In this document: piece by piece, positions 3,141 through 22,125 of the stretch
Layout of the letters: each line of letters starts with the position of its first letter
How positions within the stretch are numbered: the first letter of the stretch is position 1
Origin: a virus
Taxonomy: Duplodnaviria > Caudoviricetes
Virus record (IMG/VR): IMGVR_UViG_3300032226_000829
DNA: 64,000 nucleotides
Reading direction: 5' to 3' (one strand)
Position numbers and translations under genes: made by a program
Notes under the pieces: generated by a model
Told to the model about the DNA's origin: nothing
What the model saw: the letters and a program-made list of their open reading frames with translations, nothing else
Database searches by the model: none

Positions 3141-3151
3141 CTGTGACCATT

Positions 3152-3177
3152 CACAGGGCATTTTCGAGTGCCCTGTG
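3152..3177 (+). other. RNA hairpin CACAGGGCA-UU-[UUCG]-AG-UGCCCUGUG between the ATPase and vWA genes
   Basis: Perfect 9-bp inverted repeat, extendable by U-G and U-A pairs to a UUCG loop; no downstream U-tract. Confidence 0.6.
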
Positions 3178-3194
3178 TACAAATAAAGATTCTT

Positions 3195-4433
3195 ATGACT
3201 ACTAAAAAACAAGAAAAATTAAACAAATTACAAGAAGAAGTATTGGATAAAATTATTGTGGCAAGAGTAGGATTGTTGTTGAGACATCCTTTCTTTGGCA
3301 ACATGGCCACTAGATTGGGCATTCAAGAATGTGATGAATGGTGTCCCACAGCAGCCACTGATGGAAGAAATCTTTATTATAATACAAAATTCTTTAGCAA
3401 ACTTTCTGCTAGAGAAATCGAATTTGTGATAGCACATGAAATACTTCATTGTGTGTTTGATCACATTGGCAGAAATGAACAGAGAGATAGACAGATATAC
3501 AATGTGGCTTGTGATTACATTGTGAACAACACATTGGTGCGAGACAACATTGGTGAAAAACCCAAAGACATTCCTATATTTCAAGACTTCAAATATGAAG
3601 GTTGGAGTTCTGAAAGAGTGTATGATGAAATTTATAAAAAATATGATGAAAAACAATTGCAAAAATTAGGTCAATTGTTGGATGAACATTTGGATTGGGA
3701 CAAGGACGAAAACGGCGGCGGTAAAGATAAAAAAGACGGCAAAGAAGGTGACCAACAAAAAAGACCAGCATACAGCAAAGAAGAATTGAGAAAAATTAGA
3801 GATGAGATCAAAGATTCCATACTGCAATCAGCACAAGCCACAGGCGCTGGTAATCTTCCCAAAGAAGTGGAAAGAATCATAAAAAATATGACCAATCCTA
3901 AAATGAATTGGAGAGAAATATTACAGACTCAGATACAGAGTACCATCAAAAGTGATTACAGTTTTATGAGACCCAGTCGCAAAGGTTGGCACACAGGCGT
4001 GGTATTGCCAGGTTCACAGTTTGAACAGACCATTGATTTGGCTGTGGCCATTGATGCCAGTGGATCCATTGATGAAAAACAATTGAGTATATTCTTAGGC
4101 GAAATCAAATCCATCATGGATCAATACAAAGATTATAGAATTAAAGTGTGGACTTTTGACACAGAAGTGTACAATGAACAAGACTATGGTCCCACAGATG
4201 GTGACATCAGCCAGTATGAAATCACCGGTGGTGGTGGCACAGATTTCATGTGCAACTGGGAGTACATGAAAAAGAATGACATTCAACCAAAAAAATTCAT
4301 CATGTTCACAGACGGATACACATTTGACAGCTGGGGAGATCCTCACTACTGTGACACCGTGTTTGTGATACACAACAATCACAACGAAAGAATTGAATCA
4401 CCGTTTGGTATCACTACCAAATACGAAGACTAA
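3195..4433 (+). CDS. HExxH metallopeptidase-like / vWA domain protein (DUF2201-like), MoxR partner
   Basis: HEILH motif; acidic/Gly linker; MIDAS-like DASGS, GGGGTDF, FTDG; ORF-track start 3168 lies inside the hairpin, so ATG 3195 is preferred. Confidence 0.8.
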   Translation: MTTKKQEKLNKLQEEVLDKIIVARVGLLLRHPFFGNMATRLGIQECDEWCPTAATDGRNLYYNTKFFSKLSAREIEFVIAHEILHCVFDHIGRNEQRDRQIYNVACDYIVNNTLVRDNIGEKPKDIPIFQDFKYEGWSSERVYDEIYKKYDEKQLQKLGQLLDEHLDWDKDENGGGKDKKDGKEGDQQKRPAYSKEELRKIRDEIKDSILQSAQATGAGNLPKEVERIIKNMTNPKMNWREILQTQIQSTIKSDYSFMRPSRKGWHTGVVLPGSQFEQTIDLAVAIDASGSIDEKQLSIFLGEIKSIMDQYKDYRIKVWTFDTEVYNEQDYGPTDGDISQYEITGGGGTDFMCNWEYMKKNDIQPKKFIMFTDGYTFDSWGDPHYCDTVFVIHNNHNERIESPFGITTKYED

Positions 4434-7384: not shown

Positions 7385-8533
7385 TTAATTTTTTAACAAT
7401 TTAGATTGTTTGATTTTATAATCAGCCCAACTGCGATTGGTCCATTGAGAAGGTTTGTAATCTATATTTTTTGATTGAATACCATAACATGCTGGCACAG
7501 TATCATACAGTATCATTTTTTTATTCACTGCAGCATCACGCAACATAATTTGATGTAAAAAATTAGTGACAGGTTTGCCTGGCACAAAATCACACCAAGG
7601 TCCGCACTTTAATTGTTCCAAGTCAATGGTTTTAACATCACTCCATTGTATAATTCTATGAGTTATGCCATTGATATTCACCATGTAATGATAAAGATTA
7701 TCGTCGGCAGGATGTTTTTCCCAAGTCCAACCTTTACGTTCACAAATTTGTTTGATCAATTTGACATGATCACTGAGATAAAATCTAGGTTCATCAGGAG
7801 ATCTACCTATGTCTGATCCGGCTCTTATTCTGTATTGCCAACTCTTATGTCCTAAAGATTGTATTTCTTCCAGAACATGTTCCATATGATCCAAACTTTC
7901 CAATGTATATCCCACATAGTACACAAAAATTCCTTCAGCAATACAATTGTCTATGCCTTGCAGTTGTTTTTGATGCACAGTTGCTCCTTGATAGGAATGA
8001 TGATTCAAACCAATCATAACCATAGTGGTTCCAGCATCAGCGATTTCTTTTACCCAAGCTCTGTCAGACAACTTTACTCCATTGGTCAATATGCACACAT
8101 CTTCAGGTCTGTTTAATCTTTTCAACAATGCTTTAATTTGTCTAATTAATTCTGGCAAGTCTTTACGCACAGTGGGTTCAGCACCAGCCAATATCACAGC
8201 ACCAGATTCTGCATGAAATCTATGTTCAATCTGATCCAATATTTGTTCGATGGGTCTATCAGCTTGTTTATTGTCAGGTTTATGATAACAGTGCGGACAA
8301 TTTAAATTACATTTGTCAGTGACTTCCACCATGATCCCATGAGGAATGGTGTATCCTGAAACATCATAGTGTAATTGTTTATAAAATTCTACGTCTCTTT
8401 CTATTCTAATGTTTTGTGTGCCATGTTCAGCACAAGTCTTGGTTAGATACACTCCAGAATCTCTTGTTTCTCTCACTGCTTCACAGTGTCTATAACAGAT
8501 ATCACACAAGCTAGTAGTTTTTATATCTTCCAT
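7385..8533 (-). CDS. radical SAM enzyme, MJ0619/Tes-like N-terminus
   Basis: CNLNCPHC; GAEPTVRKDLPELI; TNGVKL; N-terminal SLC-x2-C...KTC-x2-HG. Confidence 0.85.
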   Translation of the reverse strand: MEDIKTTSLCDICYRHCEAVRETRDSGVYLTKTCAEHGTQNIRIERDVEFYKQLHYDVSGYTIPHGIMVEVTDKCNLNCPHCYHKPDNKQADRPIEQILDQIEHRFHAESGAVILAGAEPTVRKDLPELIRQIKALLKRLNRPEDVCILTNGVKLSDRAWVKEIADAGTTMVMIGLNHHSYQGATVHQKQLQGIDNCIAEGIFVYYVGYTLESLDHMEHVLEEIQSLGHKSWQYRIRAGSDIGRSPDEPRFYLSDHVKLIKQICERKGWTWEKHPADDNLYHYMVNINGITHRIIQWSDVKTIDLEQLKCGPWCDFVPGKPVTNFLHQIMLRDAAVNKKMILYDTVPACYGIQSKNIDYKPSQWTNRSWADYKIKQSKLLKN

Positions 8534-8535
8534 GA

Positions 8536-9225
8536 TTATTTGTACAGTGCTATGGCAGCATCTATAAAATCCTTAGGGTAATTGTTTCTAAAACTTTCCA
8601 AACACAATATCTGCAAGCTGGCAAAGTCTGTGGGAGTGTGCATGTCAATATTTAGTTCATGCATTTTGGGCAGCAAAACTGTTCTCCTGTCTTGGGATAT
8701 GTGACTGAAATGATCCTGCACAGTGATAAGTGGTTCGCTTTTGTGATAACAAAAGAAATAGTTAACACTTTTTAATTTGCCTTCCACCACAAAATAACTG
8801 CTGGGGTGTAAACTGTATTTGTATAATCCTAATGTTTTGTGTGCTTGCAAAATCTCCAACATCTGTTCACGCCAATTGGGCAGCACTGCATCCATGCCCA
8901 CTGTGTGACTCTGTTCCCAAAAATCCACGCCATCAACGCCAAAGATAATTTTTTTAGCGTCATAGTCCAGTTCTAATATGTCAGGAATGTGTTCTGGAAA
9001 ATTGTGATGCATCATCAGCAGCATGTCTACTTCTCTCTGCCATTTTTGTTCCATTAGTATGGGATCCATCACTTCGTTTTGATCTTTGTGATAAGCTGTG
9101 TCGTTATGAAACCATTGCACAAATTCTGTTTTATTTTGATTGATGAGGCTGGTGTACACAAGATTGTTCCTGCACAATCCTTTGCCTGGCACATTGTTGT
9201 AATAGTATACGTAGTCAGTTACCAT
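8536..9225 (-). CDS. degenerate protein-kinase-like/phosphotransferase-like protein, paralog of 17497..18132
   Basis: Similar N-terminus and (Y)K-S-L-H/Y-P-x-x-F/Y segment in both paralogs; the fold call is inference. Confidence 0.45.
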   Translation of the reverse strand: MVTDYVYYYNNVPGKGLCRNNLVYTSLINQNKTEFVQWFHNDTAYHKDQNEVMDPILMEQKWQREVDMLLMMHHNFPEHIPDILELDYDAKKIIFGVDGVDFWEQSHTVGMDAVLPNWREQMLEILQAHKTLGLYKYSLHPSSYFVVEGKLKSVNYFFCYHKSEPLITVQDHFSHISQDRRTVLLPKMHELNIDMHTPTDFASLQILCLESFRNNYPKDFIDAAIALYK

Positions 9226-9773
9226 CTAGGATATCTTTCCAATTGTTTGTAAAATTCTTGAACATTTAATTGCCATACAGTTTGATTTGTGCCTCTGTAT
9301 TTTATTTGATCGATTTTTTTCAAACATTTAGATTCTGCTAACATGGGTGCCCAAATATTATGCACTAGACGTTGAGTGCCTTCACTATTTTCATTGGTGG
9401 TCACATAAAGATTATTTTGCGATCCAGCCCATTCAACACAAGTGGGAATAAAAAATTGTGGAGTGACGCTTTGATGCGTGAGTATGCCTGTTTTGGTTCT
9501 TAATCTTGAGATAGGCAATTGATCCGTGAACACACAAGTTCTACACAATATTCTAAAACTATTTTCACCCATTTCAGGAAAAGAATGAGCGCCAGTAGAC
9601 CCCACTATTTTATTGTTGTATTTAAGCAACCAAATTTTCCATTTTTTTTCTGTGGAGATGCTGTCCACCAACATTTTTTTATTACTGTTGTTTTTGAATC
9701 CTTTGGATTCTGCTTGAAGATAAAATTCTGTTAAATCAACCGATTCAGAATATGGTACCAATTTATAAGTCAT
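9219..9773 (-). CDS. GNAT-like acyltransferase
   Basis: Size 184 aa; WLLKYNNKIVGSTGAH strand pair, RILCRTCVF, LYVTTN pattern. Confidence 0.5.
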   Translation of the reverse strand: MTYKLVPYSESVDLTEFYLQAESKGFKNNSNKKMLVDSISTEKKWKIWLLKYNNKIVGSTGAHSFPEMGENSFRILCRTCVFTDQLPISRLRTKTGILTHQSVTPQFFIPTCVEWAGSQNNLYVTTNENSEGTQRLVHNIWAPMLAESKCLKKIDQIKYRGTNQTVWQLNVQEFYKQLERYPRW

Positions 9774-9791
9774 AAATTATTTTGCTCTCAA

Positions 9792-9807
9792 TATTTAACA
9801 CTAAATA
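9792..9807. promoter_or_regulatory. back-to-back late-promoter cores (TAAATA on - at 9792-9797, on + at 9802-9807)
   Basis: Both lie in the 39-nt gap between divergent genes 9773(-) and 9813(+). Confidence 0.6.
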
Positions 9808-9812
9808 TTTGG

Positions 9813-10619
9813 ATGATAAGAGGAATTGGTGGCCGACCATATATTGATTTAACTCCACATTTGGATATAGAAGGTTTTAGGAAATTACATCCTGAAATTT
9901 GTCGAGGATTTGCTTTGGCTAGAGAATATGCCAAAGAAGGCACATGGATGTCGCCAGGATTTAATCTACAAGACATGAGTTATCAATTGAATTGGAAACC
10001 AATTTATATGGCTGTGAAAGAATATCTTGCACTGCCCACAGATCACCCTATTAGAAAAAACGGTGATGATTTGTATGCCAATATCAAAGATTACCGCACA
10101 AGAAATCAATTCACACGCTACCTCAAAGCAGTGTTGGGTGCCAAAGATCCATACATCTATTATTTTTTATGGAATGAAGGCGATTGGGATAATAGAAATT
10201 CTGAAAGACATCTCACAGAAGAAAGCAAACATTTTCCTGGATTGGTCACATGGGTTAAAAATCTTGTGGATCAAAACATTATCAGTCAAATAGGCAGAGT
10301 GATATTTTTTCACTGTGAACATGATGGACAACCATTTGAACACAGAGATCTAGATGGCAAACTGGGTGATCAACAAGGGTACAGTGATCATCGCAATGAG
10401 TTCATACACATACGTTATAACACCAAAAGAGGATTTTATATCTGGGATCCTGAAACAAAAAACAAAACCTACATCAATGCCAATGCAGCTTTCTGGAACG
10501 ATCAAGACTGGCATGGTGGAGAAATCAATCGTGAACAAGAGTATGGATTGAGAATTGACTGTGTGTTCACCGATGCATTTAGAAAAAAATTAGGCATCGA
10601 TCATTTAAAAAATTATTAA
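9813..10619 (+). CDS. Fe(II)/2OG-oxygenase-like (double-stranded beta-helix) protein, paralog of 16199..16954
   Basis: HRD ... WNDQDWHGG ... LRID putative HxD...H...R set. Confidence 0.55.
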   Translation: MIRGIGGRPYIDLTPHLDIEGFRKLHPEICRGFALAREYAKEGTWMSPGFNLQDMSYQLNWKPIYMAVKEYLALPTDHPIRKNGDDLYANIKDYRTRNQFTRYLKAVLGAKDPYIYYFLWNEGDWDNRNSERHLTEESKHFPGLVTWVKNLVDQNIISQIGRVIFFHCEHDGQPFEHRDLDGKLGDQQGYSDHRNEFIHIRYNTKRGFYIWDPETKNKTYINANAAFWNDQDWHGGEINREQEYGLRIDCVFTDAFRKKLGIDHLKNY

Positions 10620-10620
10620 T

Positions 10621-11214
10621 ATGAATCATTATCACAGATATCTAAAACTGCCTTTTGAGTATGCCAAACCTGATTTTTTTACTGGTAGTTATGATGATCC
10701 TCAATCTTTTTATTATTCAAAAGAAAAAGTTGATGATACTATTATAAAATGGATTGAGTCTTTTGATTTAAAAATTTTAAATTTAGTTGACGGTTTATAT
10801 ACGCCGCCCAAAGGTGGAAAATTAGCCATACATAGTGACACTAAAACAATCTGCAATGCTGTAAAAATTAATTTTACTTGGGGGCCAGACAACAGTGTTA
10901 CTAGATGGTGGCAAGTCAAAGACGAATCTTTTTTAACTTTAAATAGATCTAATAACGAAGAAAAAGCCACAGGTATTGTTTCAGATGTTGATATATCTTA
11001 TGCGTTATTTGCCAAAGAAGAAAATTGCAAACTTTTACATGAGCAAGTGATCAATAGACCCAGTTTGATGAACATAGGACAACTGCATAGCACATATAAT
11101 CCTCATCCAGAACAGGATCGTTGGACATTGTGTTTTACCTTGTTAAAACCTAACAAAGAATTTTTACAATTTGAAGAAGCGTTAAAAATATTCAAGGATT
11201 TTGTTTATGAATAA
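10621..11214 (+). CDS. Fe(II)/2OG-oxygenase-like protein, tandem copy 1
   Basis: LAIHSD, LHSTYN, DRWTL. Confidence 0.55.
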   Translation: MNHYHRYLKLPFEYAKPDFFTGSYDDPQSFYYSKEKVDDTIIKWIESFDLKILNLVDGLYTPPKGGKLAIHSDTKTICNAVKINFTWGPDNSVTRWWQVKDESFLTLNRSNNEEKATGIVSDVDISYALFAKEENCKLLHEQVINRPSLMNIGQLHSTYNPHPEQDRWTLCFTLLKPNKEFLQFEEALKIFKDFVYE

Positions 11215-11682
11215 AAATAATTATCACAGATATTTAAAATTACCATTTGAATATTTAAAACCAAGGTGTTTTAATAAAAGTTATGATCATCCTAATATGA
11301 TATATGTTTTGCCACAATCAATTGACCAAAGTGTGATCAAATGGATTGAGTCCTTCGATTTAAAAGTATCCAATCTTATTGAAGGATTTTATACTCCCAC
11401 AAATGGTGGAAAGATACCCCTGCACAATGACACCTCGACTATAAGCAATGCTGTAAAAATTAATTTTACTTGGGGTCCTGACAACAGTGTGACTAGATGG
11501 TGGCATGTGAAACAACCAGAATATTTAAAACCGGTCAAACCAGACAATAGTCATATATCAACTGCGGGTGTGGTGCCCGATATAGTGGTCACAGATGCCT
11601 ACTCAGCACGTGAAGAAGATTGTGATTTGGTGCATGAGCAAGTGATCAATAGACCCAGTTTGATGAACATAGGACAACTGCA
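11038..11682 (+). repeat. direct repeat: 50 nt identical at 11038-11087 and 11633-11682 (a second block of 61 nt with 3 mismatches at 10853-10913 and 11445-11505)
   Basis: catgagcaagtgatcaatagacccagtttgatgaacataggacaactgca read at both sites. Confidence 0.85.
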
Positions 11683-11809
11683 CAGCACATTCAATCCCAA
11701 CATGACTGAAGATCGTTGGACACTGTGTTTTACTCTGTTAAAATTAGATAACACACATCTACAATTTGAAGAAGCTGTGCAAATATTCAAAGATTATATA
11801 CATGAATAG
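11201..11809 (+). CDS. Fe(II)/2OG-oxygenase-like protein, tandem copy 2
   Basis: IPLHND, LHSTFN, DRWTL; near-identical blocks with 10621..11214. Confidence 0.55.
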   Translation: MFMNKNNYHRYLKLPFEYLKPRCFNKSYDHPNMIYVLPQSIDQSVIKWIESFDLKVSNLIEGFYTPTNGGKIPLHNDTSTISNAVKINFTWGPDNSVTRWWHVKQPEYLKPVKPDNSHISTAGVVPDIVVTDAYSAREEDCDLVHEQVINRPSLMNIGQLHSTFNPNMTEDRWTLCFTLLKLDNTHLQFEEAVQIFKDYIHE

Positions 11810-12338
11810 AACAGTGCGTATTACCTGCCCCAAAGAATTTAATAAAAAATATATGTCTCGTCAACATGACAATTATATCAACAAGTTGGATGTGTATCAC
11901 AATGCACAAAAAATATTTGCCAACATTGATGATGCAGAGGAGAATCTTCCTATAATATTAGAAAAATCCATTGTGTTCGATAATATCAACGTTTTTGAAT
12001 TCAATTATGATATTAAATTTCACTCAGTGGAAGAGCAGGCCAAAATTATATGGAGTCTTAAACCAATAAATTATCTATATCAAAGTCATGTGCAGTTGAT
12101 CAGACTCAACAGTGTGCAAGGCAGTGAGCATGTGTCAGATGACTATTGTATCACAGTGAAGTGTAATCAACACACTCACTCAGTGGGCAAGGAATATCAT
12201 CAAGGACAACATCAAAACATAAATTTTGAGGATCTCATAGATGCCAATGGTTATTGTTGTTTCAGTGTGCAAACCAAAAAAGTTTTTGATAACACTCCAT
12301 CCATCACATACGATCAATTACAATTTGAAATACTATAA
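11802..12338 (+). CDS. hypothetical protein
   Basis: ORF track 11766..12338; ATG 11802 overlaps the upstream stop. Confidence 0.65.
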   Translation: MNRTVRITCPKEFNKKYMSRQHDNYINKLDVYHNAQKIFANIDDAEENLPIILEKSIVFDNINVFEFNYDIKFHSVEEQAKIIWSLKPINYLYQSHVQLIRLNSVQGSEHVSDDYCITVKCNQHTHSVGKEYHQGQHQNINFEDLIDANGYCCFSVQTKKVFDNTPSITYDQLQFEIL

Positions 12339-12346
12339 TTACTGCT

Positions 12347-13462
12347 ATGACTCTCAAAGGACTTATACCTGGCAGACAGCAGCCCACACATCCAGCAGAC
12401 AAACATTGGCAATTTGGTACTGTTATGAATGGCGTTAAAAAGGTTGATCCTTTGTTGCATTATAGTTGCTTTACTTTGGGTTTCGATAGAACAGACATCA
12501 TTGAATATGTGTGTGATGCTATGAAAAATATCAAACCAGAAATAGCAGAATCTATTGTGCATGCTGAAGATTTAAAGTTAAACCATGCAAGTTATGAACT
12601 CAGCAATAAGTTGTTTGAGATGAGTGGAGGATATAGAAGCTTTTTCGCATTGTCAGGCAGTGATGCCAACGAAGGAGCGATAAAGTTATCTTCTGCCTAT
12701 CATCATGTGAAGAAAAACAATAACAAAAAACAAGTGATAAGTTTTGAGGGCAGTTATCACGGCAGCACTTTCCTTAACAATAATCTTGGAGATCTGCTGA
12801 TGGTTAATCCCATGTATACTATGGATAGGTATCATGGTGCAACAAAACTTGCCAGAGATTTTGAAATAGATCAAGTGGATTGGACCAAAGTGATGAGTGT
12901 GATAGTAGAACCATGTTCATACGGTGGGGACATGACTCCAAACTCAAATGAGTTTTGGCAAAAACTAAAACATGTTCAACAAACATTTGATGTGTTGATC
13001 ATTATGGATGATATTTTTATAGGGGGAGGCAAAACTGGTAATTATTTTGGATGGAAACACTTGCCCATACAACCTGATATCTGCACCATGGGCAAAGCCA
13101 TCACAGGTGGTTATTTTCCTTTGAGTATTACCATGTACAATGAAAAAATACATCAAACACTGCCCACAAACTTTGATTGGGATCATGGATACACTTACAA
13201 TTTTTCTTTGTCAGGCATCAACAGTGCTTTGAAATATATGGACATACTGGAAAAAGAACAGGTATTGAACAACCATCAAACAATTCAAAACACTGCTGTT
13301 AAAACTATTCAAAGCACAGGTTTTGAAATACTGAATCGTTTTGGTTGCCTCTATATGATACGCAAAGGCAATTATAAAAATTTATATATTGTGCCTTTGA
13401 ATGCTACTGAAGAATATTTTACTGTGCTTAAACAAAATTTAGAATCATATGAAAATAATTGA
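12347..13462 (+). CDS. class III PLP-dependent aminotransferase (BioA/ArgD-like fold)
   Basis: SGSDANEGAIK, FEGSYHGST, DDIFIGGGKTG, PDICTMGKAITGGYFPLS (PLP lysine), HGYTY. Confidence 0.88.
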   Translation: MTLKGLIPGRQQPTHPADKHWQFGTVMNGVKKVDPLLHYSCFTLGFDRTDIIEYVCDAMKNIKPEIAESIVHAEDLKLNHASYELSNKLFEMSGGYRSFFALSGSDANEGAIKLSSAYHHVKKNNNKKQVISFEGSYHGSTFLNNNLGDLLMVNPMYTMDRYHGATKLARDFEIDQVDWTKVMSVIVEPCSYGGDMTPNSNEFWQKLKHVQQTFDVLIIMDDIFIGGGKTGNYFGWKHLPIQPDICTMGKAITGGYFPLSITMYNEKIHQTLPTNFDWDHGYTYNFSLSGINSALKYMDILEKEQVLNNHQTIQNTAVKTIQSTGFEILNRFGCLYMIRKGNYKNLYIVPLNATEEYFTVLKQNLESYENN

Positions 13463-14003
13463 TAATTTTTTTGACTCTGCAACGCTATCAGAACTAAAAA
13501 AAGCCATTCAAAACGAAATAGCTAACGAAATCAGTGCTATTAAAAAATCCGACCTGAGCACAGAAAAAGACCATGTGGGATTAGAAAACAGCAATTATTA
13601 TTTTTTAAATGGTCCTGCTAAAATTATTGTATTAAAAAATTTAGTGGCAAATAAGTTGTTGTCTGCTGAAGTGATGGATGATAACGACAGTATGCTACGC
13701 TATCATGTCAATAGAGCTCCCTACAATGCTAGATGGCATTTGGATGGATTATATGCTAAAAAAGATGAATTGGACTACATAGGCATAACAATTTTCTTAA
13801 ATGATGTTTGGCAAACAAATGACGGAGGATTATTTGTTTACAAAGAAAATAAAAATGATACACAGGGCAAGTTTGTTGAACCTATAGGTAATAGAGTTAT
13901 AATTAATTCCAAAGATCTTGATCACGCAGTTACAGCAATAACCAACCAAGAAGTGGTTCGATATTCTTTACAGATGTTTATTAATCACAAATACTTAATA
14001 TGA
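13449..14003 (+). CDS. 2OG-Fe(II) oxygenase, prolyl-4-hydroxylase-like
   Basis: WHLD, ITIFLN, GGLF, HAVT, RYS motifs. Confidence 0.82.
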   Translation: MKIIDNFFDSATLSELKKAIQNEIANEISAIKKSDLSTEKDHVGLENSNYYFLNGPAKIIVLKNLVANKLLSAEVMDDNDSMLRYHVNRAPYNARWHLDGLYAKKDELDYIGITIFLNDVWQTNDGGLFVYKENKNDTQGKFVEPIGNRVIINSKDLDHAVTAITNQEVVRYSLQMFINHKYLI

Positions 14004-15073
14004 TACACACAGAATTTGATCCATTACAAGAAGTAATTGTGGGAGATTGCTATGCTCCTGGAGATATGGATCATTTTTTACCCAAAGAAAGCATATCAAG
14101 TTTCAATAGAATACTGGAAGAAACCAAACAAGACCTTAACAATCTTGCAGATTTTATAAAAAACTCTAACATTAAAGTGCATAGACCAGAAGTATTAAAA
14201 TACACAAAATCTATAGAGATGCCTAATTTTAAAGTGAATTTTCCCATGTGTCCCATGGTGCCTAGAGATCAATATCTAATTTTAGATAGACAAATTATAC
14301 AAACTTATACCAGCTACACAGATAGATATTTTGATTCGTTGAGTTATGCGAAAATTTTTAATGAATTATTCAAAGAAGGATACAATTGGATTTCACAACC
14401 TCTGCCCAAACTAATCAACACTCAGATAGATGAAAGTTGGTACATATCTGACTCTATCTATCAAGAAAAATTATCAGATCAATTGCTATGGCACACAGCT
14501 ACCATATTCAAAGCAGGAGATTCTTTGCTGTATAACAGTAGAGGTCCTGGTTCTACTTTTGGTTTGGAATGGTTCAAACGTAATTGTAAGGATTATACAC
14601 TGATTGAAAACACTGGTGATACTGTGTTTAAAAACTATGGACATATTGATCATGGATTTTTATTAATAGACGATGACACAGTAATACATGCTGGCATAGA
14701 ATGGGTGCCTTTGGCATTAAGAAATAAAAAATTAATAGATGTTAAAAATTATGTTGGCAAGGTTGTGATAGACAACTACATTAAAGACTACACTGCCACA
14801 GATGGCAGATATTCCAATGCTTGGCTGGAACAATATCTGGCTAATTGGAGAGGATACACACAAGAAGTTTGTTTTGATTTAAACGTATTAATTTTAGATT
14901 CAAAAAACATATTGTTTGGCAAACATTTACCTGAACTATTTCAATATTTAAAGACTTTTAACATCAATTGTCATGTGGTGCCACAACGTCACGAAGTATA
15001 TTGGGAAGGTGGAACTCATTGCTGCACACTAGATGTTAAAAGAAAAGGTTCAAAAAGAAAGATAATAAATTAA
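14000..15073 (+). CDS. amidinotransferase (AGAT/StrB1 family)
   Basis: HTEFDPLQEVIVG, PRD, GHID, GGTHCCTLD with the catalytic Cys. Confidence 0.88.
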   Translation: MIHTEFDPLQEVIVGDCYAPGDMDHFLPKESISSFNRILEETKQDLNNLADFIKNSNIKVHRPEVLKYTKSIEMPNFKVNFPMCPMVPRDQYLILDRQIIQTYTSYTDRYFDSLSYAKIFNELFKEGYNWISQPLPKLINTQIDESWYISDSIYQEKLSDQLLWHTATIFKAGDSLLYNSRGPGSTFGLEWFKRNCKDYTLIENTGDTVFKNYGHIDHGFLLIDDDTVIHAGIEWVPLALRNKKLIDVKNYVGKVVIDNYIKDYTATDGRYSNAWLEQYLANWRGYTQEVCFDLNVLILDSKNILFGKHLPELFQYLKTFNINCHVVPQRHEVYWEGGTHCCTLDVKRKGSKRKIIN

Positions 15074-15624
15074 ATTTTTCTTACATCAATAGTGCTGACG
15101 TACAAAGGCTCATTCAATACAGTATTAAAAATACGAATGATATCTTGAGTATCACAGAAGGGTTCACTCTGTCTAACTCCGGTTTTTTCACCATAATTTA
15201 AAATTCGTATCAGCACACTTTGAGGTTGAGCACCAAATGGTGTTTTAACACTTAAAAACCTATGCACATTTTCCAAATGAGTTTTTTGTTTAATATAATT
15301 TAAATCAGCGCCCACTTGTTTTAAAATATCTTCTGATAACTCAGTACCCAATGTACCAAAAGTTATTATTTTGCCTGTTTTATTTGTTTCACTCCATTTT
15401 TTATGAACCATCATCAACAGTTGAATCTGTGCATCACCCACGTGTGCTAGATTGACAAAATGGTCATAACTCGCACTTTGATCAACCACTCGTTGAATAT
15501 CTTCCAATTTGTTCAAATTGTATCCAGTGTTTCTAGATATGCCCACAACTTCATGATGATGTTTGAGATGTTCAAACAACACAGATCCTATGGGAGAAGT
15601 ATGTCCGGTCATTAATATTTTCAT
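15070..15624 (-). CDS. short-chain dehydrogenase/reductase-like Rossmann protein
   Basis: ILMTGHTSPIG, VVGISR, FVNLAH, IITFGT, YxxxK (YIKQK). Confidence 0.7.
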   Translation of the reverse strand: MKILMTGHTSPIGSVLFEHLKHHHEVVGISRNTGYNLNKLEDIQRVVDQSASYDHFVNLAHVGDAQIQLLMMVHKKWSETNKTGKIITFGTLGTELSEDILKQVGADLNYIKQKTHLENVHRFLSVKTPFGAQPQSVLIRILNYGEKTGVRQSEPFCDTQDIIRIFNTVLNEPLYVSTIDVRKI

Positions 15625-16202
15625 GATACTGTGAACCTCACTATCTGTATAAATCTACTGTCCATGCTGCTGCCATGTCCGTATTCTTCAATTTCAAACA
15701 TGATAGGATTGACTCCTTGCCAAAAAAATTCTTTTTCTGCACTCAAGGTGGTACCTGCTTGCACGTTTTGATTGTGTATCAGTGTTTCGCCATTCAGTTT
15801 AAAATGGAAGTATTCTTGACTGATACCAAATTTGTCATTGAAAGATTGCAATGATTGTGCATCACACAGTGATAAGTTATAGGTAAATTTACATGACCAC
15901 CAGTCTACATCTTTATAAATCAACTCAATTTGAGCTGTGAGTTCTATTTGTTTGTCATCATGCCAACTTTGTTTATTTTGTAGTACCAATGTGTTATTGT
16001 TTTTTTGTAAAACAATTTCAGCGCTTCTGCTTATGCTTTTTTTTTCAGCAGTTTCCTTGCTTAATTCTATGGTATCAAACAATACAGAGTTGTTCCATTG
16101 CAATATCAATTGATCCTGTAACTTGCCTTCAGCAACCAGTTCATTGGCTACATAAGAAGAACGCATCACTGGAAAATAATCAAACTGTAATTTTTTTTTC
16201 AT
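15621..16202 (-). CDS. hypothetical protein (193 aa)
   Basis: ORF track; 4-nt overlaps on both sides. Confidence 0.7.
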   Translation of the reverse strand: MKKKLQFDYFPVMRSSYVANELVAEGKLQDQLILQWNNSVLFDTIELSKETAEKKSISRSAEIVLQKNNNTLVLQNKQSWHDDKQIELTAQIELIYKDVDWWSCKFTYNLSLCDAQSLQSFNDKFGISQEYFHFKLNGETLIHNQNVQAGTTLSAEKEFFWQGVNPIMFEIEEYGHGSSMDSRFIQIVRFTVS

Positions 16203-16954
16203 TGTTTTAATTGAGCCATTAATTCTTTGTTAAAGATACCTTCTATCCTCATAGACCAACTCACGTTATTGGTATTTTCTACTCCGCCATGCCAATCATG
16301 ATTGTTCCAATAGAATGAGCTGCCAGGAGTCATGTGTATTTTTTCGTCTCCGTTTTCCACATACAAAGATCTAACATTCATGGGATCAAACCATATAAAA
16401 TGCTCTTCCTGTTCATAGGGTTCCATCTGTAAAAAACAATCTCTGTGTTTGGCAGTTTTTAATCCAGAATTTTTCAATAATAGTATGATTGGTCCCAATG
16501 GTTCAAATGGCAATTTTTTAGCCCAATCCACTAGTGATGGAAAATACTTGGATTCTTCTGTCCATCTACAGTCATATATTGGTTTTTTATTTGCATCATA
16601 AGGTAGATATGGAGCGTTAATACATCTATCAAATTCTCTTATCACAAGATAATTCAGCGCTTCGTACACAGGATACTGATACATTAACCAGTAATGAAAA
16701 CCCACCATGTCGGTTTTTTCCAACTCTGCACCGTACTGTTTTAGTTTAGGATCTGTTTCTTTATCACGCCAATAATTATAGGCTCCTTTAATATCATCCA
16801 CATATTCTTCATGATTTTCTATGCCGTAGTTCAATCTAATATGTGCGTGAGCTTTGCCTATGCCGTAGTGAACATCTTTTGTGATGTCTTTTAATTGTTG
16901 TATATTCACATAGGGATCCATACAGATGTATGGTTTGCCGTAAACACCTTTCAT
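16199..16954 (-). CDS. Fe(II)/2OG-oxygenase-like protein, paralog of 9813..10619
   Basis: MKGVYGKPYI vs MIRGIGGRPYI; HRD; WNNHDWHGG; MRIE. Confidence 0.55.
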   Translation of the reverse strand: MKGVYGKPYICMDPYVNIQQLKDITKDVHYGIGKAHAHIRLNYGIENHEEYVDDIKGAYNYWRDKETDPKLKQYGAELEKTDMVGFHYWLMYQYPVYEALNYLVIREFDRCINAPYLPYDANKKPIYDCRWTEESKYFPSLVDWAKKLPFEPLGPIILLLKNSGLKTAKHRDCFLQMEPYEQEEHFIWFDPMNVRSLYVENGDEKIHMTPGSSFYWNNHDWHGGVENTNNVSWSMRIEGIFNKELMAQLKQ

Positions 16955-16955
16955 A

Positions 16956-17504
16956 TTATCCCCATATGTTAAAAATATATTTGGGCACTAATCCTGCATT
17001 GGATCCTGCATGCCATGAAGTACGTTTGGGCCATTTCCAAGTGGCTCCTGTTTCTTGATTGTACAAACAATGATCTTCCACAATTAAAACATGTCCTGGT
17101 GCTGGTGGACTTATGTGGCAATGAAATCGAACTATTTCTTTTTTGTGTTCTAAAGTTTTTTCATCGTCGGTGATATCCCAATGCCAAGGTGCTACGTCAC
17201 CAGGTTTTACTCTGCTGATCCAAGCATTGATATAACTGCTCATTCCCACCCATTCACAAAACTTTTCCGCTATCTTTTTATCAAAATTTGTGCCTGGTAG
17301 GTACATGTCCCAACTGGCATTGCCGCCTTCGTGTTTCATCTTATATCCAGCTTCACGCAATGGTTTGGCCACTTCTTCCACACCGGGCACATGATGTCCC
17401 ACATCATGTCTTGGTCCTATGTAAGCACTCTGTTGATCTTCAATGCTTTTTATAATACTGTGCCAATCAATCAGATCTTTGCAGTTACCCACATATTCAA
17501 GCAT
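16956..17504 (-). CDS. aspartyl/asparaginyl beta-hydroxylase-like 2OG-Fe(II) oxygenase
   Basis: VKPGDVAPWHWD, RFHCHI, WHAGSN. Confidence 0.7.
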   Translation of the reverse strand: MLEYVGNCKDLIDWHSIIKSIEDQQSAYIGPRHDVGHHVPGVEEVAKPLREAGYKMKHEGGNASWDMYLPGTNFDKKIAEKFCEWVGMSSYINAWISRVKPGDVAPWHWDITDDEKTLEHKKEIVRFHCHISPPAPGHVLIVEDHCLYNQETGATWKWPKRTSWHAGSNAGLVPKYIFNIWG

Positions 17505-18132
17505 TTAAAAAATCTCCTGGCCAATTGCCATAATTCATTTCCACAGTTAATTCATACAATTTAAAAGTGTCATACAATTCACCCACAAGACTTTGAGCAA
17601 ATCTAGGATGAGTGGGATCAAATAATATGGATTTTAACAATTCCTTGGACACATATCTATCTTCGTCACAGGTACAACCGTAAAGATCCATTATGCGAAC
17701 TTTGTTTTTATCATCCAAATAAAATGTGTGTGGATACAGATTGGATTTGTGTATGTTCATTGACAATAAGTCTGACAAAATGTCTTTGACCTGTTGTTGC
17801 CAGTTGGGCACTGCGGATATTTCGCCTGTGTGTATGAGTTTGCTTAGACTACGATCATACCATTTGAACTCAATGGTTCTATTTCTGTGATCAATGTTTA
17901 AGATTTCAGGAGCATATGGTTTATTTTTTAATTTTTCTATATAATTGATTTCTCTAGAAAACCAATTTTGTCTAAAGTCATCTGTCATATTGGAATTAAC
18001 AAAATATTGATTGCTGTTAAAATTCATTTTAAATATATCTTTGTCAGGACTAATCAATGGTTCATACACCATGTTGGCAATGGCTAATGTGCCCAGTTCA
18101 TGTTTGTAAAAATTATTCCAATATTTCATCAT
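17497..18132 (-). CDS. protein-kinase-like/phosphotransferase-like protein
   Basis: FKM lysine, REINY, APEIL, HKSNLYPHTFY catalytic-loop-like segment, IMDLY (DFG-like). Confidence 0.55.
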   Translation of the reverse strand: MMKYWNNFYKHELGTLAIANMVYEPLISPDKDIFKMNFNSNQYFVNSNMTDDFRQNWFSREINYIEKLKNKPYAPEILNIDHRNRTIEFKWYDRSLSKLIHTGEISAVPNWQQQVKDILSDLLSMNIHKSNLYPHTFYLDDKNKVRIMDLYGCTCDEDRYVSKELLKSILFDPTHPRFAQSLVGELYDTFKLYELTVEMNYGNWPGDFLNA

Positions 18133-18796
18133 ACATAACCTTTATGTTAAATCCACAAGTGTCTACCAGTTTGTTCACTTGTGGTAGATGAGTGCGTTCT
18201 ATTTTAAAACTTATTTCAGTTTCAGAAATTTTTTTAAATTTATTCATACATCCTTGTTTGTTTAATCTATTTAAAACTATGGAAAAACTATGATCAAACA
18301 AATATCTTAGATTGTATGGAGGATCATTAACTATAATTTTGACCGAACACGGATCTTTTAGTTCTACTTTGTTTAATAATTTTCTTACCACAAGTTGAAT
18401 GCGTGATTTATATCCCAAATTAGCAGCAGAATGTATGCGACCAGCATCCATAAGATACACTGTGTTGTCCACTTCAGTGGGGTACATTTTTAAATTTTTT
18501 AAATCATACAGATAACTGTGTTCACCTTGCAGTGTCAAATGGTATCGGTCATCTATGTCAGCATGAGCACAATAACTTTCACCTGGCTCTAATACAATTA
18601 TTCTTGCTTCACCCACAGATCCCAGTTGAGCAAACAGATCCACAATGGCGGGCTTTTTGAATTCATCTTTCAACTGCCAAGCATCATAGAAAAAATCTCC
18701 AGTGGGTTTATTCAATTGAGTTTTTGGTAAATCCAAAATTGGTAAACTGTTAAAAATTTCTTTGGCTGAACATGTTATATTAATTTGGTCAAGCAT
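18113..18796 (-). CDS. aspartyl/asparaginyl beta-hydroxylase-like 2OG-Fe(II) oxygenase with a C-terminal extension
   Basis: LEPGESYCAHADIDDRYHL, IHSAAN, RIQLVV. Confidence 0.7.
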   Translation of the reverse strand: MLDQINITCSAKEIFNSLPILDLPKTQLNKPTGDFFYDAWQLKDEFKKPAIVDLFAQLGSVGEARIIVLEPGESYCAHADIDDRYHLTLQGEHSYLYDLKNLKMYPTEVDNTVYLMDAGRIHSAANLGYKSRIQLVVRKLLNKVELKDPCSVKIIVNDPPYNLRYLFDHSFSIVLNRLNKQGCMNKFKKISETEISFKIERTHLPQVNKLVDTCGFNIKVMYDEILE

Positions 18797-18801
18797 AGCT
18801 G

Positions 18802-18845
18802 TACTTATCGTGAAAAATTATGTGGGCAGTTAATTACGATAAATA
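18802..18845. promoter_or_regulatory. divergent late-promoter cores (TAAGTA on - at 18802-18807; TAAATA on + at 18840-18845)
   Basis: Both lie in the gap between divergent genes 18796(-) and 18859(+). Confidence 0.55.
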
Positions 18846-18858
18846 CTCTGTCCATACT

Positions 18859-19902
18859 ATGTCCAATTTCGAGCAGTCAAATTTCAGTGATGAATCGTCA
18901 GTCAATGCTGGCCAATCATCTGAACAGTTAATCAGGATACAGAGCAACCAAAAAAAAGATAGTTTTAGGATAGAATTATTCCTCAGCAACAGATGCAACT
19001 ACAAGTGCTGGTATTGTTTTCCAGGATCCAATGAAGGCACACATGGTTGGCCTGATCTTGAAATAATCAAAAAGAATCTTTCCCATCTTATTGAACACTA
19101 CAAAAAAAATATTGGCAAAAAAGATTTCTATCTGCACCTCATAGGAGGTGAACCCACCATATGGAAAGATTTTGGAGAATTTACCAAATATTTCAAAGAA
19201 CAATTCAACTGTTTGATTAGCATGAGCACCAATGGATCACGCACACTGAGATGGTGGGAAGAATATGGTCATTACAATGACATTGTGATGCTGAGCTGTC
19301 ATCATGAAAGAGTGGACGTGCCACATATTGTTGCTGTGGCAGATTTATTGTATAAAAAAGGAGTCAGCGTGGATGCTAACGTGCTGATGGATCCACATGC
19401 TTGGGATAAATGTGTGGCCATAGTGGAGCAGTTAAAATCCAGCCGAAAAAAATGGGCTATAAATGTGTTGGAGATTTATCACAGCACAGTGAATTATAAT
19501 GCAGAACAAAAGAAATATCTCAGTGACTGCAACAAAAGAAATCCGTCATTTTTTCAACTGTTCAATTGGAAAAAAAGAAGGTTTGAAAAATTCAATTCCA
19601 CTCCCACATTACATTTTAACAATAAGAAAAAGAAAAGAGTATTACAAAATTATCTTTCATTGAACAGTATGAACAATTTTGAAGGATGGCAGTGCAATGT
19701 GGGTGTGGACACCATACAGATCGACAAGCATGGATTAATCAAAGGCTCTTGTGGCAATCGTCTTTATAATTTAAATCGTTCATTCAATCTGTTCAACCAT
19801 GATTTTACTGATAACTTTTACCCTGATATTGTGCCCACAATTTGTGAAAGAAAACGTTGTACTTGTCAACCCGAAATCAACTGCAATAAAAAAACTTTAT
19901 GA
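18859..19902 (+). CDS. radical SAM enzyme with a C-terminal Cys cluster (SPASM/twitch-like)
   Basis: CNYKCWYC, GGEPT, STNGS, WQCNVG...GSC...C-x4-CTC; start moved from 18820 to ATG 18859, downstream of TAAATA. Confidence 0.88.
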   Translation: MSNFEQSNFSDESSVNAGQSSEQLIRIQSNQKKDSFRIELFLSNRCNYKCWYCFPGSNEGTHGWPDLEIIKKNLSHLIEHYKKNIGKKDFYLHLIGGEPTIWKDFGEFTKYFKEQFNCLISMSTNGSRTLRWWEEYGHYNDIVMLSCHHERVDVPHIVAVADLLYKKGVSVDANVLMDPHAWDKCVAIVEQLKSSRKKWAINVLEIYHSTVNYNAEQKKYLSDCNKRNPSFFQLFNWKKRRFEKFNSTPTLHFNNKKKKRVLQNYLSLNSMNNFEGWQCNVGVDTIQIDKHGLIKGSCGNRLYNLNRSFNLFNHDFTDNFYPDIVPTICERKRCTCQPEINCNKKTL

Positions 19903-20720
19903 GTAACACAGAGCAATTAAAAACAATTTACGAAACCAGTGTGTTCAAAAACATATTGCATCTAGTTGATGATGTGTATTTTCCTTTGGCCAGCCAGTGG
20001 AAAAACATTGGCGTCAGTGTGAGTGGTGGTGCTGACAGTGCTTTAATGGCATATCTGCTGTGTGATTTGATTGACAAAAATCAGTTGAATATCACTGTGC
20101 ATATTATTACCAATGTTAGATGTTGGAAAACCAGACCTTGGCAGCGTCATAACAGCATGGAAGTTTATAACTGGTTGACTGATGAATTTAAAAACATAAA
20201 ATTTAAAAGACACGAAAATTTTATTGCTCCTGAACTGGAATGGGGATCCAAAGGACCCAGCATTGTGGATGAATATGGTAGATTAAAGAGTGGCAATCAA
20301 ATAGAACTAAGAGCACATGCTGAATATGTGGCTCACACAAAAAAATTAGATGCTTGGTACTGTGGAGTGACCAAGAATCCCGATAAAGAATTTGATCATC
20401 GTCTCACTGACAGAGATGTGTTGCTCGACACATTGTCTGACACAGTGCTGGACAGATTAATCAAAGCACACATGGGCGGCTATGCTTGTCACCCTTTCAC
20501 TTATGTGCAGAAAGATTGGATAGTTGCCCAATATAAAAAATTAGGCATAATGGACCTATTTGATCTCACTCGCAGTTGTGAAGGTGACCGCGACACATCA
20601 CCTAAAATCTTTGGAGACTTGGACTACAGGACTTATGTGCCGGGGCAGCCCGTGCCTGTGTGTGGAGAATGTTTTTGGTGTCAAGAGCGACAATGGGGAG
20701 TAGACAGTGTCAGACCATAA
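19899..20720 (+). CDS. QueC-like PP-loop ATPase (adenine nucleotide alpha-hydrolase)
   Basis: SVSGGADS PP-loop; TRSC...CGECFWCQER Zn-binding motif as in QueC. Confidence 0.72.
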   Translation: MSNTEQLKTIYETSVFKNILHLVDDVYFPLASQWKNIGVSVSGGADSALMAYLLCDLIDKNQLNITVHIITNVRCWKTRPWQRHNSMEVYNWLTDEFKNIKFKRHENFIAPELEWGSKGPSIVDEYGRLKSGNQIELRAHAEYVAHTKKLDAWYCGVTKNPDKEFDHRLTDRDVLLDTLSDTVLDRLIKAHMGGYACHPFTYVQKDWIVAQYKKLGIMDLFDLTRSCEGDRDTSPKIFGDLDYRTYVPGQPVPVCGECFWCQERQWGVDSVRP

Positions 20721-22125
20721 CGAATATTGGATGAATCCTGAAGATTCACAACTGGGCAAATGGCAGAGAGAAATAGAATCTGTCACAGGCACACCCACCT
20801 ATTGCATATTGCCTTGGATACATTTTGCCACTAGACCCAATGGTGATATGAGGCTGTGTTGTTCAGCCAATGCCAGTGGTGCTGGATCAGATCACACAGT
20901 GGGGATTATTAAAAAAGAAGATGGCACACCTGCCAACTTTGGTGTGGACACTCCCATGAGTGCTTGGAACAATGATTATATGAAAAGTGTGCGTACCACC
21001 ATGCTGAAAGGTCAGATACCTGCCAGTTGTCGCAAGTGTTTTGATGAAGAACGTGTGGGTGTGGTGAGCAAAAGAATATGGGAAACTGGCACATGGCATC
21101 GAGACGGTGTGGATGTGCCTGAACTGATACGTCAAACCCAAGAAGATGGCACAGTGCCTGAAAAATTATTGTATTTGGATCTGCGTTTGGGACACACTTG
21201 TAATATCAAATGTGTGATGTGTTCTCCACATGACAGCAGCAAATGGGTGAATGATTGGCAACAACTGATGCCACAATTACAAAACAAAGAAGTCAAAGAC
21301 CAAATACAATGGGATCGAAAAGAATTCAACAACTTCTGGCATGAAAAAGATACATTCTGGCAGGAAATGTACAAACAAATACCCAATCTCAAACAGGTGT
21401 ATTTTGCTGGTGGTGAACCATTGATGATCAAAGAACACAAAACTTTTATAGAGGAGATCATAAGACAAGGTTATCAAGATCGTATATTGTTGCGTTACAA
21501 TTCCAATGGTATATTAGTGGATGAAGATTTAATCCAGTTATGGAGTAAATTTAAAAAAGTTAAATTTGCTGTGAGCATGGATGCCACACATCAGCGTGAT
21601 GAATACATACGCTTTCCCACACAATGGGACACAGTAGAAAAGAATTTACACATGTTGGACAATACTCCTGACAACATACAAGTGAGTTTAGCCACTGCCA
21701 TACAAATTTTCAATATCAAACACTTGCCTGATTTTATGAAATGGAAAATACAGAGCGGATTTAAAAAATTAAATGTGGGCACTGTGCCTGGTGGAGTACA
21801 AATGGGTGGTGGATTGGTTAACATGCATTTATTATACATACCAACTTTTTTAAGCATACAAATATTACCCCGAGAAGACAAACAACAAATAAGAGAACTG
21901 TTTATGGATTTTAAAGATTGGTTGAGGCACAATTATAGACAGGACGATGATTTTTGGAAAACTAATCCTTATGGATGGAGACGTTGGGAAGCAGTGTTGA
22001 TGCACATGGAAGCCAAAGATAATTCTAGATTGTTGCCAGGCTTTAAAGAATATGTGAACAAATTGGATGCTATCAGAGGATTGAGTGCTGCTAAAATTTT
22101 TCCTGAATTAGCACATCTTTTATAG
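20707..22125 (+). CDS. radical SAM enzyme with an N-terminal twitch/SPASM-like Cys module
   Basis: YCILPW...LCC...CRKC, then CNIKCVMC, FAGGEP, YNSNG. Confidence 0.9.
   Translation: MSDHNEYWMNPEDSQLGKWQREIESVTGTPTYCILPWIHFATRPNGDMRLCCSANASGAGSDHTVGIIKKEDGTPANFGVDTPMSAWNNDYMKSVRTTMLKGQIPASCRKCFDEERVGVVSKRIWETGTWHRDGVDVPELIRQTQEDGTVPEKLLYLDLRLGHTCNIKCVMCSPHDSSKWVNDWQQLMPQLQNKEVKDQIQWDRKEFNNFWHEKDTFWQEMYKQIPNLKQVYFAGGEPLMIKEHKTFIEEIIRQGYQDRILLRYNSNGILVDEDLIQLWSKFKKVKFAVSMDATHQRDEYIRFPTQWDTVEKNLHMLDNTPDNIQVSLATAIQIFNIKHLPDFMKWKIQSGFKKLNVGTVPGGVQMGGGLVNMHLLYIPTFLSIQILPREDKQQIRELFMDFKDWLRHNYRQDDDFWKTNPYGWRRWEAVLMHMEAKDNSRLLPGFKEYVNKLDAIRGLSAAKIFPELAHLL

Follow-up and report, generated by a model that had tools for sequence, protein, structure and literature searches.

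The window analysed here is a 64,000-nucleotide (nt) stretch of DNA from a giant lake phage of the class Caudoviricetes (Duplodnaviria; IMG/VR record IMGVR_UViG_3300032226_000829). Three consecutive genes on its + strand encode a class III aminotransferase, a small P4H-like oxygenase that uses 2-oxoglutarate (2OG) and Fe(II), and an amidinotransferase; with their recurrent neighbours they are referred to below as the cassette. An initial annotation of this locus had suggested that the three gene products act in the synthesis of a guanidino-sugar or another guanidino metabolite. The results showed that the cassette is real and conserved; its individual enzymes come from known families, and the assemblage is widespread in uncultured aquatic phages and essentially absent from cells. 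The cassette very probably puts a guanidino group on some molecule.

Core genes of the cassette

The aminotransferase, oxygenase and amidinotransferase genes overlap consecutively by 14 nt and 4 nt. The three genes are intact and co-directional, and the PRD, HID and HC motifs of the amidinotransferase, described as intact in the initial annotation, are invariant.

When the amidinotransferase was searched against Pfam (E ≤ 10) and NCBIfam, no match was obtained, and the protein could be placed only through PDB sequence and profile searches. With phmmer against PDB sequences, the matches were HsvA (2.1e-22, residues 2–354 aligned), StrB1 (1e-19), SxtG (9e-19) and AGAT (4e-15), and a profile of 20 family sequences gave 1.1e-37 for HsvA, 3.1e-28 for SxtG, 6.5e-26 for StrB1 and 1.1e-25 for AGAT. 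All solved-structure matches at E ≤ 0.001 were amidinotransferases, and no deiminase, DDAH or ADI was found among them. In the 20 sequences, the motifs PRD, GHIDHG and GGxHC (WEGGTHC) were invariant, as were D90 (in PRD), D174, H215, D217 and C341. C341 aligned with the HC motif of all four solved enzymes (C407 of AGAT, C362 of SxtG), and the catalytic residues aligned with D131, D209, H258 and C362 of SxtG, the roles of which have been described (PMC12371840). The family displayed 93 invariant columns at 56–84% identity. Approximately 60 residues (~226–290) aligned to no solved homologue, the alignment between the profile and HsvA covering residues 2–237 and 291–354; this segment probably shapes the acceptor site. 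Judged by its sequence, the product of 14000–15073 belongs to the amidinotransferase family, since every defining feature that could be tested was present, and its family appears to be a distinct virus-only subfamily characterized by the unalignable segment.

The lysine that binds pyridoxal 5′-phosphate (PLP) in the aminotransferase, K250, and D221 did not vary in an alignment of 20 family members, and the phosphate loop S103-G104-S105 (SGSDANEGA) was also invariant. The best solved relatives were γ-aminobutyrate (GABA), putrescine and polyamine:pyruvate transaminases (~1e-27 to 1e-24). Acetyl- and succinyl-ornithine transaminases aligned over nearly the full length (~1e-24 to 1e-22), ArgD matched at 4.9e-39, and the aminotransferase model of the daptides, a group of ribosomally synthesized and post-translationally modified peptides (RiPPs), matched at 9e-29. 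The phage protein is short for its class (371 amino acids, aa). The carboxylate-binding arginine usual for class III enzymes was not located, as the family alignment contained no invariant arginine past residue 300, and the amino donor or acceptor may be atypical. The oxygenase scored 34.1 bits in PF13640, where the curated cut-off is 27, and H97-x-D99...H159...R171, corresponding to the facial triad and the basic 2OG-binding residue, was unchanged in 14 homologues. Family membership, intact catalytic residues and a tight, recurrent linkage of the genes are shown by these results.

Occurrence and gene neighbourhood in other viruses

The amidinotransferase family formed 372 clusters (90% identity) in metagenomes at E ≤ 1e-5, which collapsed to a handful at 50% identity. 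It was carried by at least 126 IMG/VR contigs of uncultured viruses; this count was obtained by an alignment-based search, a single-sequence scan of the viral contigs having retrieved close relatives only. When 185,579 species genomes of bacteria and archaea were scanned by motif, one match was obtained, a contig of 5.6 kb (L088, JBBAKF010000125.1) binned into a metagenome-assembled genome of Polynucleobacter. The contig is probably phage DNA, and the binning possibly hints at the host. Since this was the only match among so many cellular genomes, we regard the close amidinotransferase family as essentially virus-exclusive. Only six of 50,697 cultured-phage records matched, all of them distantly; these matches were from CP220, F379, cyanophage S-SCSM2R and two single-cell marine virus fragments. 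A megablast search of positions 9000–19000 against cultured phages gave no match. Amidinotransferases had been called unusual phage cargo in the initial annotation, which is true of cultured phages but does not apply to uncultured aquatic ones.

For the neighbourhood counts, the open reading frames (ORFs) of 88 loci were clustered, and the amidinotransferases were grouped into 12 lineages at 75% identity. A class III aminotransferase gene of the same orientation immediately preceded the amidinotransferase gene in 61 of the 67 loci with at least 2 kb of upstream sequence, and in 9/12 lineages. Families c3 and c6, both putative oxygenases (Table 1), were each found in nine lineages, and the β-sandwich protein c4 and the P4H-like oxygenase each in six, usually together. 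Radical S-adenosylmethionine (SAM) genes were present in six lineages, a QueC-like gene in five, an AdoMet_dc-family gene within 10 kb in five, and the short-chain dehydrogenase/reductase (SDR) in three. A 145-aa family with a weak Pfam match to DUF6875 and the motifs CPFA...FLPDH...TGN, which does not occur in the window, was encoded directly beside the amidinotransferase in eight lineages (L001:9065-9502, L019:1322-1768, L070:7775-8212 and others); it was counted separately from AdoMet_dc, to which it is unrelated despite single-linkage merging. Cultured cyanophages, S-PM2, Syn1 and S-RIM44 among them, encode homologues of this DUF6875-like family (~30–37% identity); all of these phages were absent from the matches obtained with the amidinotransferase. 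Sister amidinotransferase families were accompanied by the same partner genes, and the link to the aminotransferase was among the features they shared.

The largest lineage is marine and had the gene order c6-c32-c3-c4-aminotransferase-oxygenase-amidinotransferase. Here the cassette was surrounded by replication genes (DnaB, primase, Pol III, UvsW), and neither glycosyltransferase nor radical SAM genes were identified in the 10 kb around it. One T4-like lineage carried a four-gene insert between gp23 and uvsY, consisting of the DUF6875-like gene, the amidinotransferase gene, an unannotated gene and the QueC-like gene. Because of these placements among replication genes or between gp23 and uvsY, the cassette appears to be a self-contained and portable unit and not a fixed part of a glycosyltransferase/radical SAM island.

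AdoMet_dc-family genes near the amidinotransferase gene were found at L070:11106-11483, L071:11219-11590 and L033:4383-4898. The first of these is on the same strand, 32 nt downstream, and its product is 50% identical to the enzyme of pelagiphage HTVC201P, a demonstrated pyruvoyl arginine decarboxylase (PMC9992855). A SET-domain protein of 162 aa (Pfam, 1.8e-23) was encoded at L028:1211-1699, on the opposite strand immediately downstream of the amidinotransferase gene and before a gene for a DnaB-like helicase; marine relatives shared this arrangement. A fragment of a NodU/CmcH-type carbamoyltransferase was also found near the cassette in marine relatives.

Operon and island in the window

The trio forms the end of an operon of seven + strand genes (9813–15073), the spacing of which ranged from an overlap of 44 nt to a gap of 8 nt. 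The opposite strand adds three cupin-type oxygenases, resulting in seven putative Fe/2OG oxygenases in 9 kb.

Table 1. Predicted genes of the cassette and its surroundings in the window. AF2, AlphaFold2; pLDDT, predicted local distance difference test score.
Feature	Position	Strand	Basis
Radical SAM protein of the archaeal tetraether lipid synthase (Tes/GDGT-MAS) family type	7385-8533	-	N-terminal zinc ribbon of the family, PF23545, 5e-12
Protein-kinase-like fold protein (c21), copy modelled	8536-9225	-	AF2 and Foldseek
Asp/Asn-β-hydroxylase-like cupin oxygenase, first operon gene (c19)	9813-10619	+	Language-model features; HRD...WHGG motif in sequence
Virus-specific cupin/2OG-type oxygenase, copy 1 (c3)	10621-11214	+	H71-x-D73...H156...R167 invariant in 16 homologues
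Virus-specific cupin/2OG-type oxygenase, copy 2 (c3)	11201-11809	+	61% identity to copy 1, same invariant triad
β-Sandwich protein without enzyme fold (c4)	11802-12338	+	AF2 pLDDT 89, all-β
Class III (ω-type) PLP aminotransferase	12347-13462	+	Pfam Aminotran_3, E 1.1e-42
Small P4H-like 2OG/Fe(II) oxygenase	13449-14003	+	Pfam 2OG-FeII_Oxy_3 (PF13640), E 5.6e-8
Amidinotransferase, virus-exclusive subfamily (AGAT/StrB1/HsvA/SxtG family)	14000-15073	+	Homology to solved members, invariant catalytic residues
Short SDR-like Rossmann protein, convergent with amidinotransferase	15070-15624	-	Weak matches; TGxxxxxG and YxxxK
Conserved protein c32	15621-16202	-	Co-directional with cassette in marine relatives; Pfam scan without match
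Second Asp/Asn-hydroxylase-like cupin (c19)	16199-16954	-	Paralogue of 9813-10619
Cupin oxygenase family c6	16956-17504	-	H108-x-D110...H165 invariant in 9 homologues
Minimal protein-kinase-like fold protein (c21), paralogue of 8536-9225	17497-18132	-	Fold of modelled paralogue
Asp/Asn-hydroxylase-like cupin (c16)	18113-18796	-	HAD...IHS motif
Divergent QueC-like PP-loop protein	19899-20720	+	Pfam QueC in relatives (2e-5 to 5e-3); window copy unmatched
Radical SAM protein	20707-22125	+	NCBIfam NF033640 (N-terminal twitch), 1e-116, far over cut-off
Radical SAM protein	24606-25874	-	NCBIfam NF033640 (N-terminal twitch), 2e-96, far over cut-off
SPASM radical SAM enzyme	26465-27454
4895-aa ORF	40052-54739	-	Matches of N-terminal 1000 residues (26–31% identity) to virion structural proteins of jumbo phages Atu_ph07 and PA5oct

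The Pfam scan gave no match for the first operon gene, the language-model features of which scored 0.96 to viral PF05118 clusters (33 of 100 hits), and a homologue of c16 matched PF05118 at 1.4e-4, slightly under the cut-off. An Atlas model of c3 had template modelling (TM) scores of 0.5–0.6 to the Asp_Arg_Hydrox, PhyH and 2OG-FeII_Oxy_3 folds. The structural matches of c4 were limited to generic Ig/C2/lectin-like domains, with Z < 6 for natural chains, and the profiles of c3 and c4 retrieved either a spurious designed-propeller match or nothing from the PDB sequences. The start of c4 is likely ATG 11802 rather than TTG 11766, because M13 was invariant in the homologue alignment; with this start, only 8 nt are shared with the preceding gene. 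A relation between c3 and the P4H-like oxygenase, or between c32 and c4, was not detectable.

The convergent SDR of the initial annotation is plausible but weakly supported. The reading frame (184 aa) overlaps the amidinotransferase stop by 4 nt and contains both SDR motifs, but the Pfam Epimerase match (9.6e-5) was limited to the N-terminus, one homologue hit adh_short at 0.003, and the gene recurred in three lineages only. The kinase-like genes that had been noted nearby were borne out at the level of the fold: the AF2 model of the c21 protein (pLDDT 88) matched protein kinases in Foldseek (E 3e-6, probability 1.0). However, neither copy had a Pfam match, and conservation of the catalytic HxD/N and DFG positions was not found among seven homologues. 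A phosphorylation step is doubtful because of these unconserved positions, and 17497–18132 probably encodes a pseudokinase.

Candidate regulatory signals were also considered. The late-promoter motif TATAAATA occurred once, away from the operon. CTAAATA was located 6 nt upstream of the start codon at 9813, but the motif was not enriched in the window (nine found, 7.6 expected). Sigma-70 promoter sites showed no enrichment; terminator-like sites were marginally over expectation (9 vs 4.9, S.D. 2.2), and none marked the ends of the operon.

Beyond the cassette, the window contains eight radical SAM genes within approximately 21 kb, among them twitch/SPASM types, with the QueC-like gene wedged among them. 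Radical SAM genes of the Tes/GDGT-MAS type recurred beside amidinotransferase genes in 5/12 lineages and also adjoined a sister family (L090); QueC-like copies of relatives were found, for example, at L021:5115-5756 and L070:1994-2671. An Mtd_N fibre-like gene lies at 6012. The island, in which structural and fibre genes adjoin radical SAM cassettes, matches the concept of the host recognition cluster of pelagi- and cyanomyophages (PMC7029224). A gene pair for a MoxR-type AAA ATPase and a DUF2201 metallopeptidase/VWA protein (2037–4433, +) is shared with a close relative (L005). Pfam scans covered 39 window ORFs (~1–37 kb). No enzyme family forming inositol, inosose or nucleoside diphosphate (NDP)-sugars was found in them, although the host could supply such a precursor, and neither DegT-type aminotransferases nor ATP-grasp families were matched.

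Possible products and known systems

Because the catalytic residues are intact, the genes are translationally coupled, and the synteny of aminotransferase and amidinotransferase genes holds in 61/67 loci, the analysis supports a phage-made guanidino compound that is formed by oxidation, transamination and amidination. In this general form, the dehydrogenase–aminotransferase–amidinotransferase logic of the initial annotation stands. Its streptidine-like sugar or cyclitol model was not specifically supported, since the aminotransferase is of class III, the kinase motifs are unconserved and a precursor enzyme was not found, and since the SDR is optional and the largest lineage shows no glycosyltransferase within 10 kb.

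The reading that we favour, with a probability of somewhat less than one half (approximately 0.45), is that a self-contained, virus-exclusive operon builds a guanidino group in three steps on a small aliphatic amine. One or more of the small Fe(II)/2OG oxygenases would turn a C–H of a small precursor into a carbonyl, either by double hydroxylation or by hydroxylation beside a heteroatom, and the short SDR may assist in the window lineage. The ω-type aminotransferase, the family of which is clear and the substrate presumed, would convert the carbonyl to a primary amine. Finally, the new amine would receive, via Cys341, the amidino group of L-arginine with release of ornithine, a reaction for which the catalytic apparatus is in place. 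The acceptor would be a low-molecular-weight aliphatic amine derived from an amino acid or polyamine rather than an NDP-sugar or inosamine phosphate. We favour such an amine because the closest solved relative, HsvA, is a polyamine amidinotransferase, because the aminotransferase resembles transaminases of terminal amines (GABA, putrescine, polyamines) and not DegT, because AdoMet_dc-family genes adjoin the amidinotransferase in several lineages, and because the cassette is autonomous and strongly conserved. In the window lineage, the radical SAM/methyltransferase/glycosyltransferase island may elaborate or attach the product, but the cassette appears to be independent of the island.

Several points weigh against this reading. 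The identity of the acceptor cannot be read from sequence, as the 226–290 segment aligns to no solved structure, and the higher overall similarity to HsvA leaves the specificity unfixed. Glycosyltransferases and radical SAM enzymes flank the amidinotransferase in the window lineage, the amidinotransferases of CP220 and S-SCSM2R also lie beside such genes, S-SCSM2R adding a DegT-like sugar aminotransferase, and numerous unannotated neighbouring ORFs in the marine lineage leave room for glycosyltransferases. The P4H-like and Asp/Asn-hydroxylase-like families classically modify proteins. The aminotransferase could instead clear the ornithine by-product. Hypervariable phage regions of this kind frequently carry SpeD, halogenase and oxygenase genes; the adjacency of the decarboxylase genes is therefore weak evidence and may be partly coincidental.

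That the cassette aminates and amidinates a sugar or cyclitol unit, which glycosyltransferases of the island would attach to a virion fibre or a host surface glycan, is rather unlikely but remains the most serious competitor. The number of radical SAM genes in the island speaks for it, as does the position of the island next to virion structural genes, which is that of a host recognition cluster. Similarly, gp086 of CP220 lies amid five radical SAM and two nucleotide-sugar-transferase-like genes (PMC2853527), the operon of S-SCSM2R ORF309 includes five glycosyltransferases and a DegT-like aminotransferase, with an oxygenase directly upstream, and the carbamoyltransferase fragment near marine cassettes is of the NodU/CmcH type. 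However, the aminotransferase is not of the DegT class, enzymes forming NDP-sugars, inositol or inosose were not found among the scanned ORFs, and the kinase-like proteins are without conserved catalytic residues. Furthermore, several lineages carry the cassette without detected glycosyltransferases, and the strong conservation of the cassette contrasts with the variation expected of host-recognition glycans. We consider it improbable that the enzymes act on side chains of virion proteins or peptides, for example by converting lysine or ornithine to homoarginine- or arginine-like residues. The two oxygenase families and SPASM/twitch radical SAM enzymes are classical protein and peptide modifiers, the aminotransferase matches the daptide model, a SET-domain gene adjoins the cassette in marine relatives, and two conserved proteins with a non-enzymatic appearance, c4 and c32, accompany it. 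Moreover, the amidinotransferase-like ORF266 and the oxygenase ORF269 of S-SCSM2R were detected in purified virions, although this may reflect mere abundance, as the authors of that study state (PMC12801897). The daptide match was no better than those of many other class III families, and the cassette contained no conserved precursor-peptide gene. To our knowledge, no AGAT-family enzyme acts on proteins.

Still less probable is a re-routing of arginine and ornithine as auxiliary nitrogen metabolism, in which arginine would be converted to ornithine, an ornithine/acetylornithine-type aminotransferase would follow, and the oxygenases would act on downstream amino acids. Ornithine is an obligatory by-product of AGAT-type amidino transfer, and the aminotransferase aligns with acetyl- and succinyl-ornithine transaminases and ArgD. 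Nevertheless, an amidino acceptor would still be needed, several distinct oxygenase families would be left unexplained, and the near virus-exclusivity is unlike that of typical host-derived auxiliary metabolic genes. We give the lowest probability, a very small one, to the possibility that the pentein enzyme hydrolyses an amidine or guanidine, or that it joins the QueC-like enzyme in acting on a 7-deazaguanine derivative in phage DNA. The hydrolase role is opposed by the solved matches, which were amidinotransferases throughout. For the nucleobase role, a QueC-like gene accompanies the amidinotransferase in five of the 12 lineages, the gp23–uvsY insert included, and DpdA3-type deazaguanine systems have been attributed to the source genome and to CP220 (PMC10516641), but the QueC-like gene was not seen nearby in most cassette lineages and nothing links the oxygenases or the aminotransferase to nucleobases.

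A further and doubtful proposal is that a new guanidino compound is made late in infection and incorporated into the particle of aquatic giant and T4-like phages. It could act there as a polyamine-like, guanidinylated counter-ion of the packaged DNA, or decorate fibre proteins, glycans or DNA, and the virion would gain an arginine-like positive charge that no host enzyme supplies. Knowledge of the product would show what a recurrent component of the large 'tailoring-only' islands in jumbo and T4-like phages does, including the radical SAM/amidinotransferase module of Campylobacter phages, unexplained since 2010, and might bring to light a virus-made metabolite or a virion modification that is new. 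Our search of the literature found no paper characterizing a phage member of the amidinotransferase family. The identity of the product is open to direct testing, as the amidinotransferase is a single soluble enzyme with a simple mass-shift readout, and related genes are available in two cultured phages, S-SCSM2R and CP220.

Among the known systems, HsvA of the phevamine pathway in Erwinia amylovora and Pseudomonas syringae, which uses arginine to amidinate spermidine (PMC6187163), was the best solved match (PDB 5wpi), with the PRD, HID and HC motifs in common. The hsv operon has two ATP-grasp ligases, whereas the phage enzyme is paired with an aminotransferase and oxygenases; since ATP-grasp ligases were not found among the scanned window ORFs, the cassette does not match an hsv-type pathway. 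StrB1 (PDB 1bwd) belongs to the same family and shares the logic of oxidation, transamination and amidination. However, streptidine is made from an inositol-derived substrate with the aid of a DegT/StsC-type aminotransferase and a functional kinase, whereas the window has a class III aminotransferase, inactive-looking kinase-like proteins and no inositol enzyme in the scanned ORFs. Thus, the cassette departs from a streptidine-type pathway in the class of its aminotransferase, and neither a convincing kinase nor, among the scanned ORFs, a precursor enzyme was found. SxtG and CyrA/AGAT of the cyanotoxin and creatine pathways have the fold family and catalytic residues in common with the phage enzyme (PMC12371840), but their polyketide synthase (PKS), nonribosomal peptide synthetase (NRPS) and SxtA-type partners are not present in the cassette, and the neighbouring genes do not suggest α-aminoketone or glycine acceptors.

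In the Campylobacter phages CP220 and CPt10, radical SAM and 'glycine amidinotransferase' genes form an interchangeable module, an association noted in 2010 without an assigned function (Timms et al. 2010, PMC2853527). The product of gp086 is a homologue of the window amidinotransferase (28.7% identity over 98% of the length), and three radical SAM proteins encoded near gp086 align over their full length with the SPASM enzyme of the window, but CP220 itself is without a class III aminotransferase, and a relation of gp085, upstream of gp086, to two window oxygenase profiles was not detectable. The cultured, T4-like cyanophage S-SCSM2R has amidinotransferase homologues with an adjacent 2OG oxygenase, upstream of ORF309 and downstream of ORF266, genes that its authors labelled 'antibiotic synthesis genes' without experiment (PMC12801897). 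ORF308 had no detectable relation to the P4H-like oxygenase profile. ORF309 is related at an hhalign probability of 98%, but it is shorter, StrB1-like and without the 226–290 segment, and it lies among the glycosyltransferases and DegT-like aminotransferase of ORF301–310. As in the uncultured relatives, SpeD and halogenase genes are located nearby.

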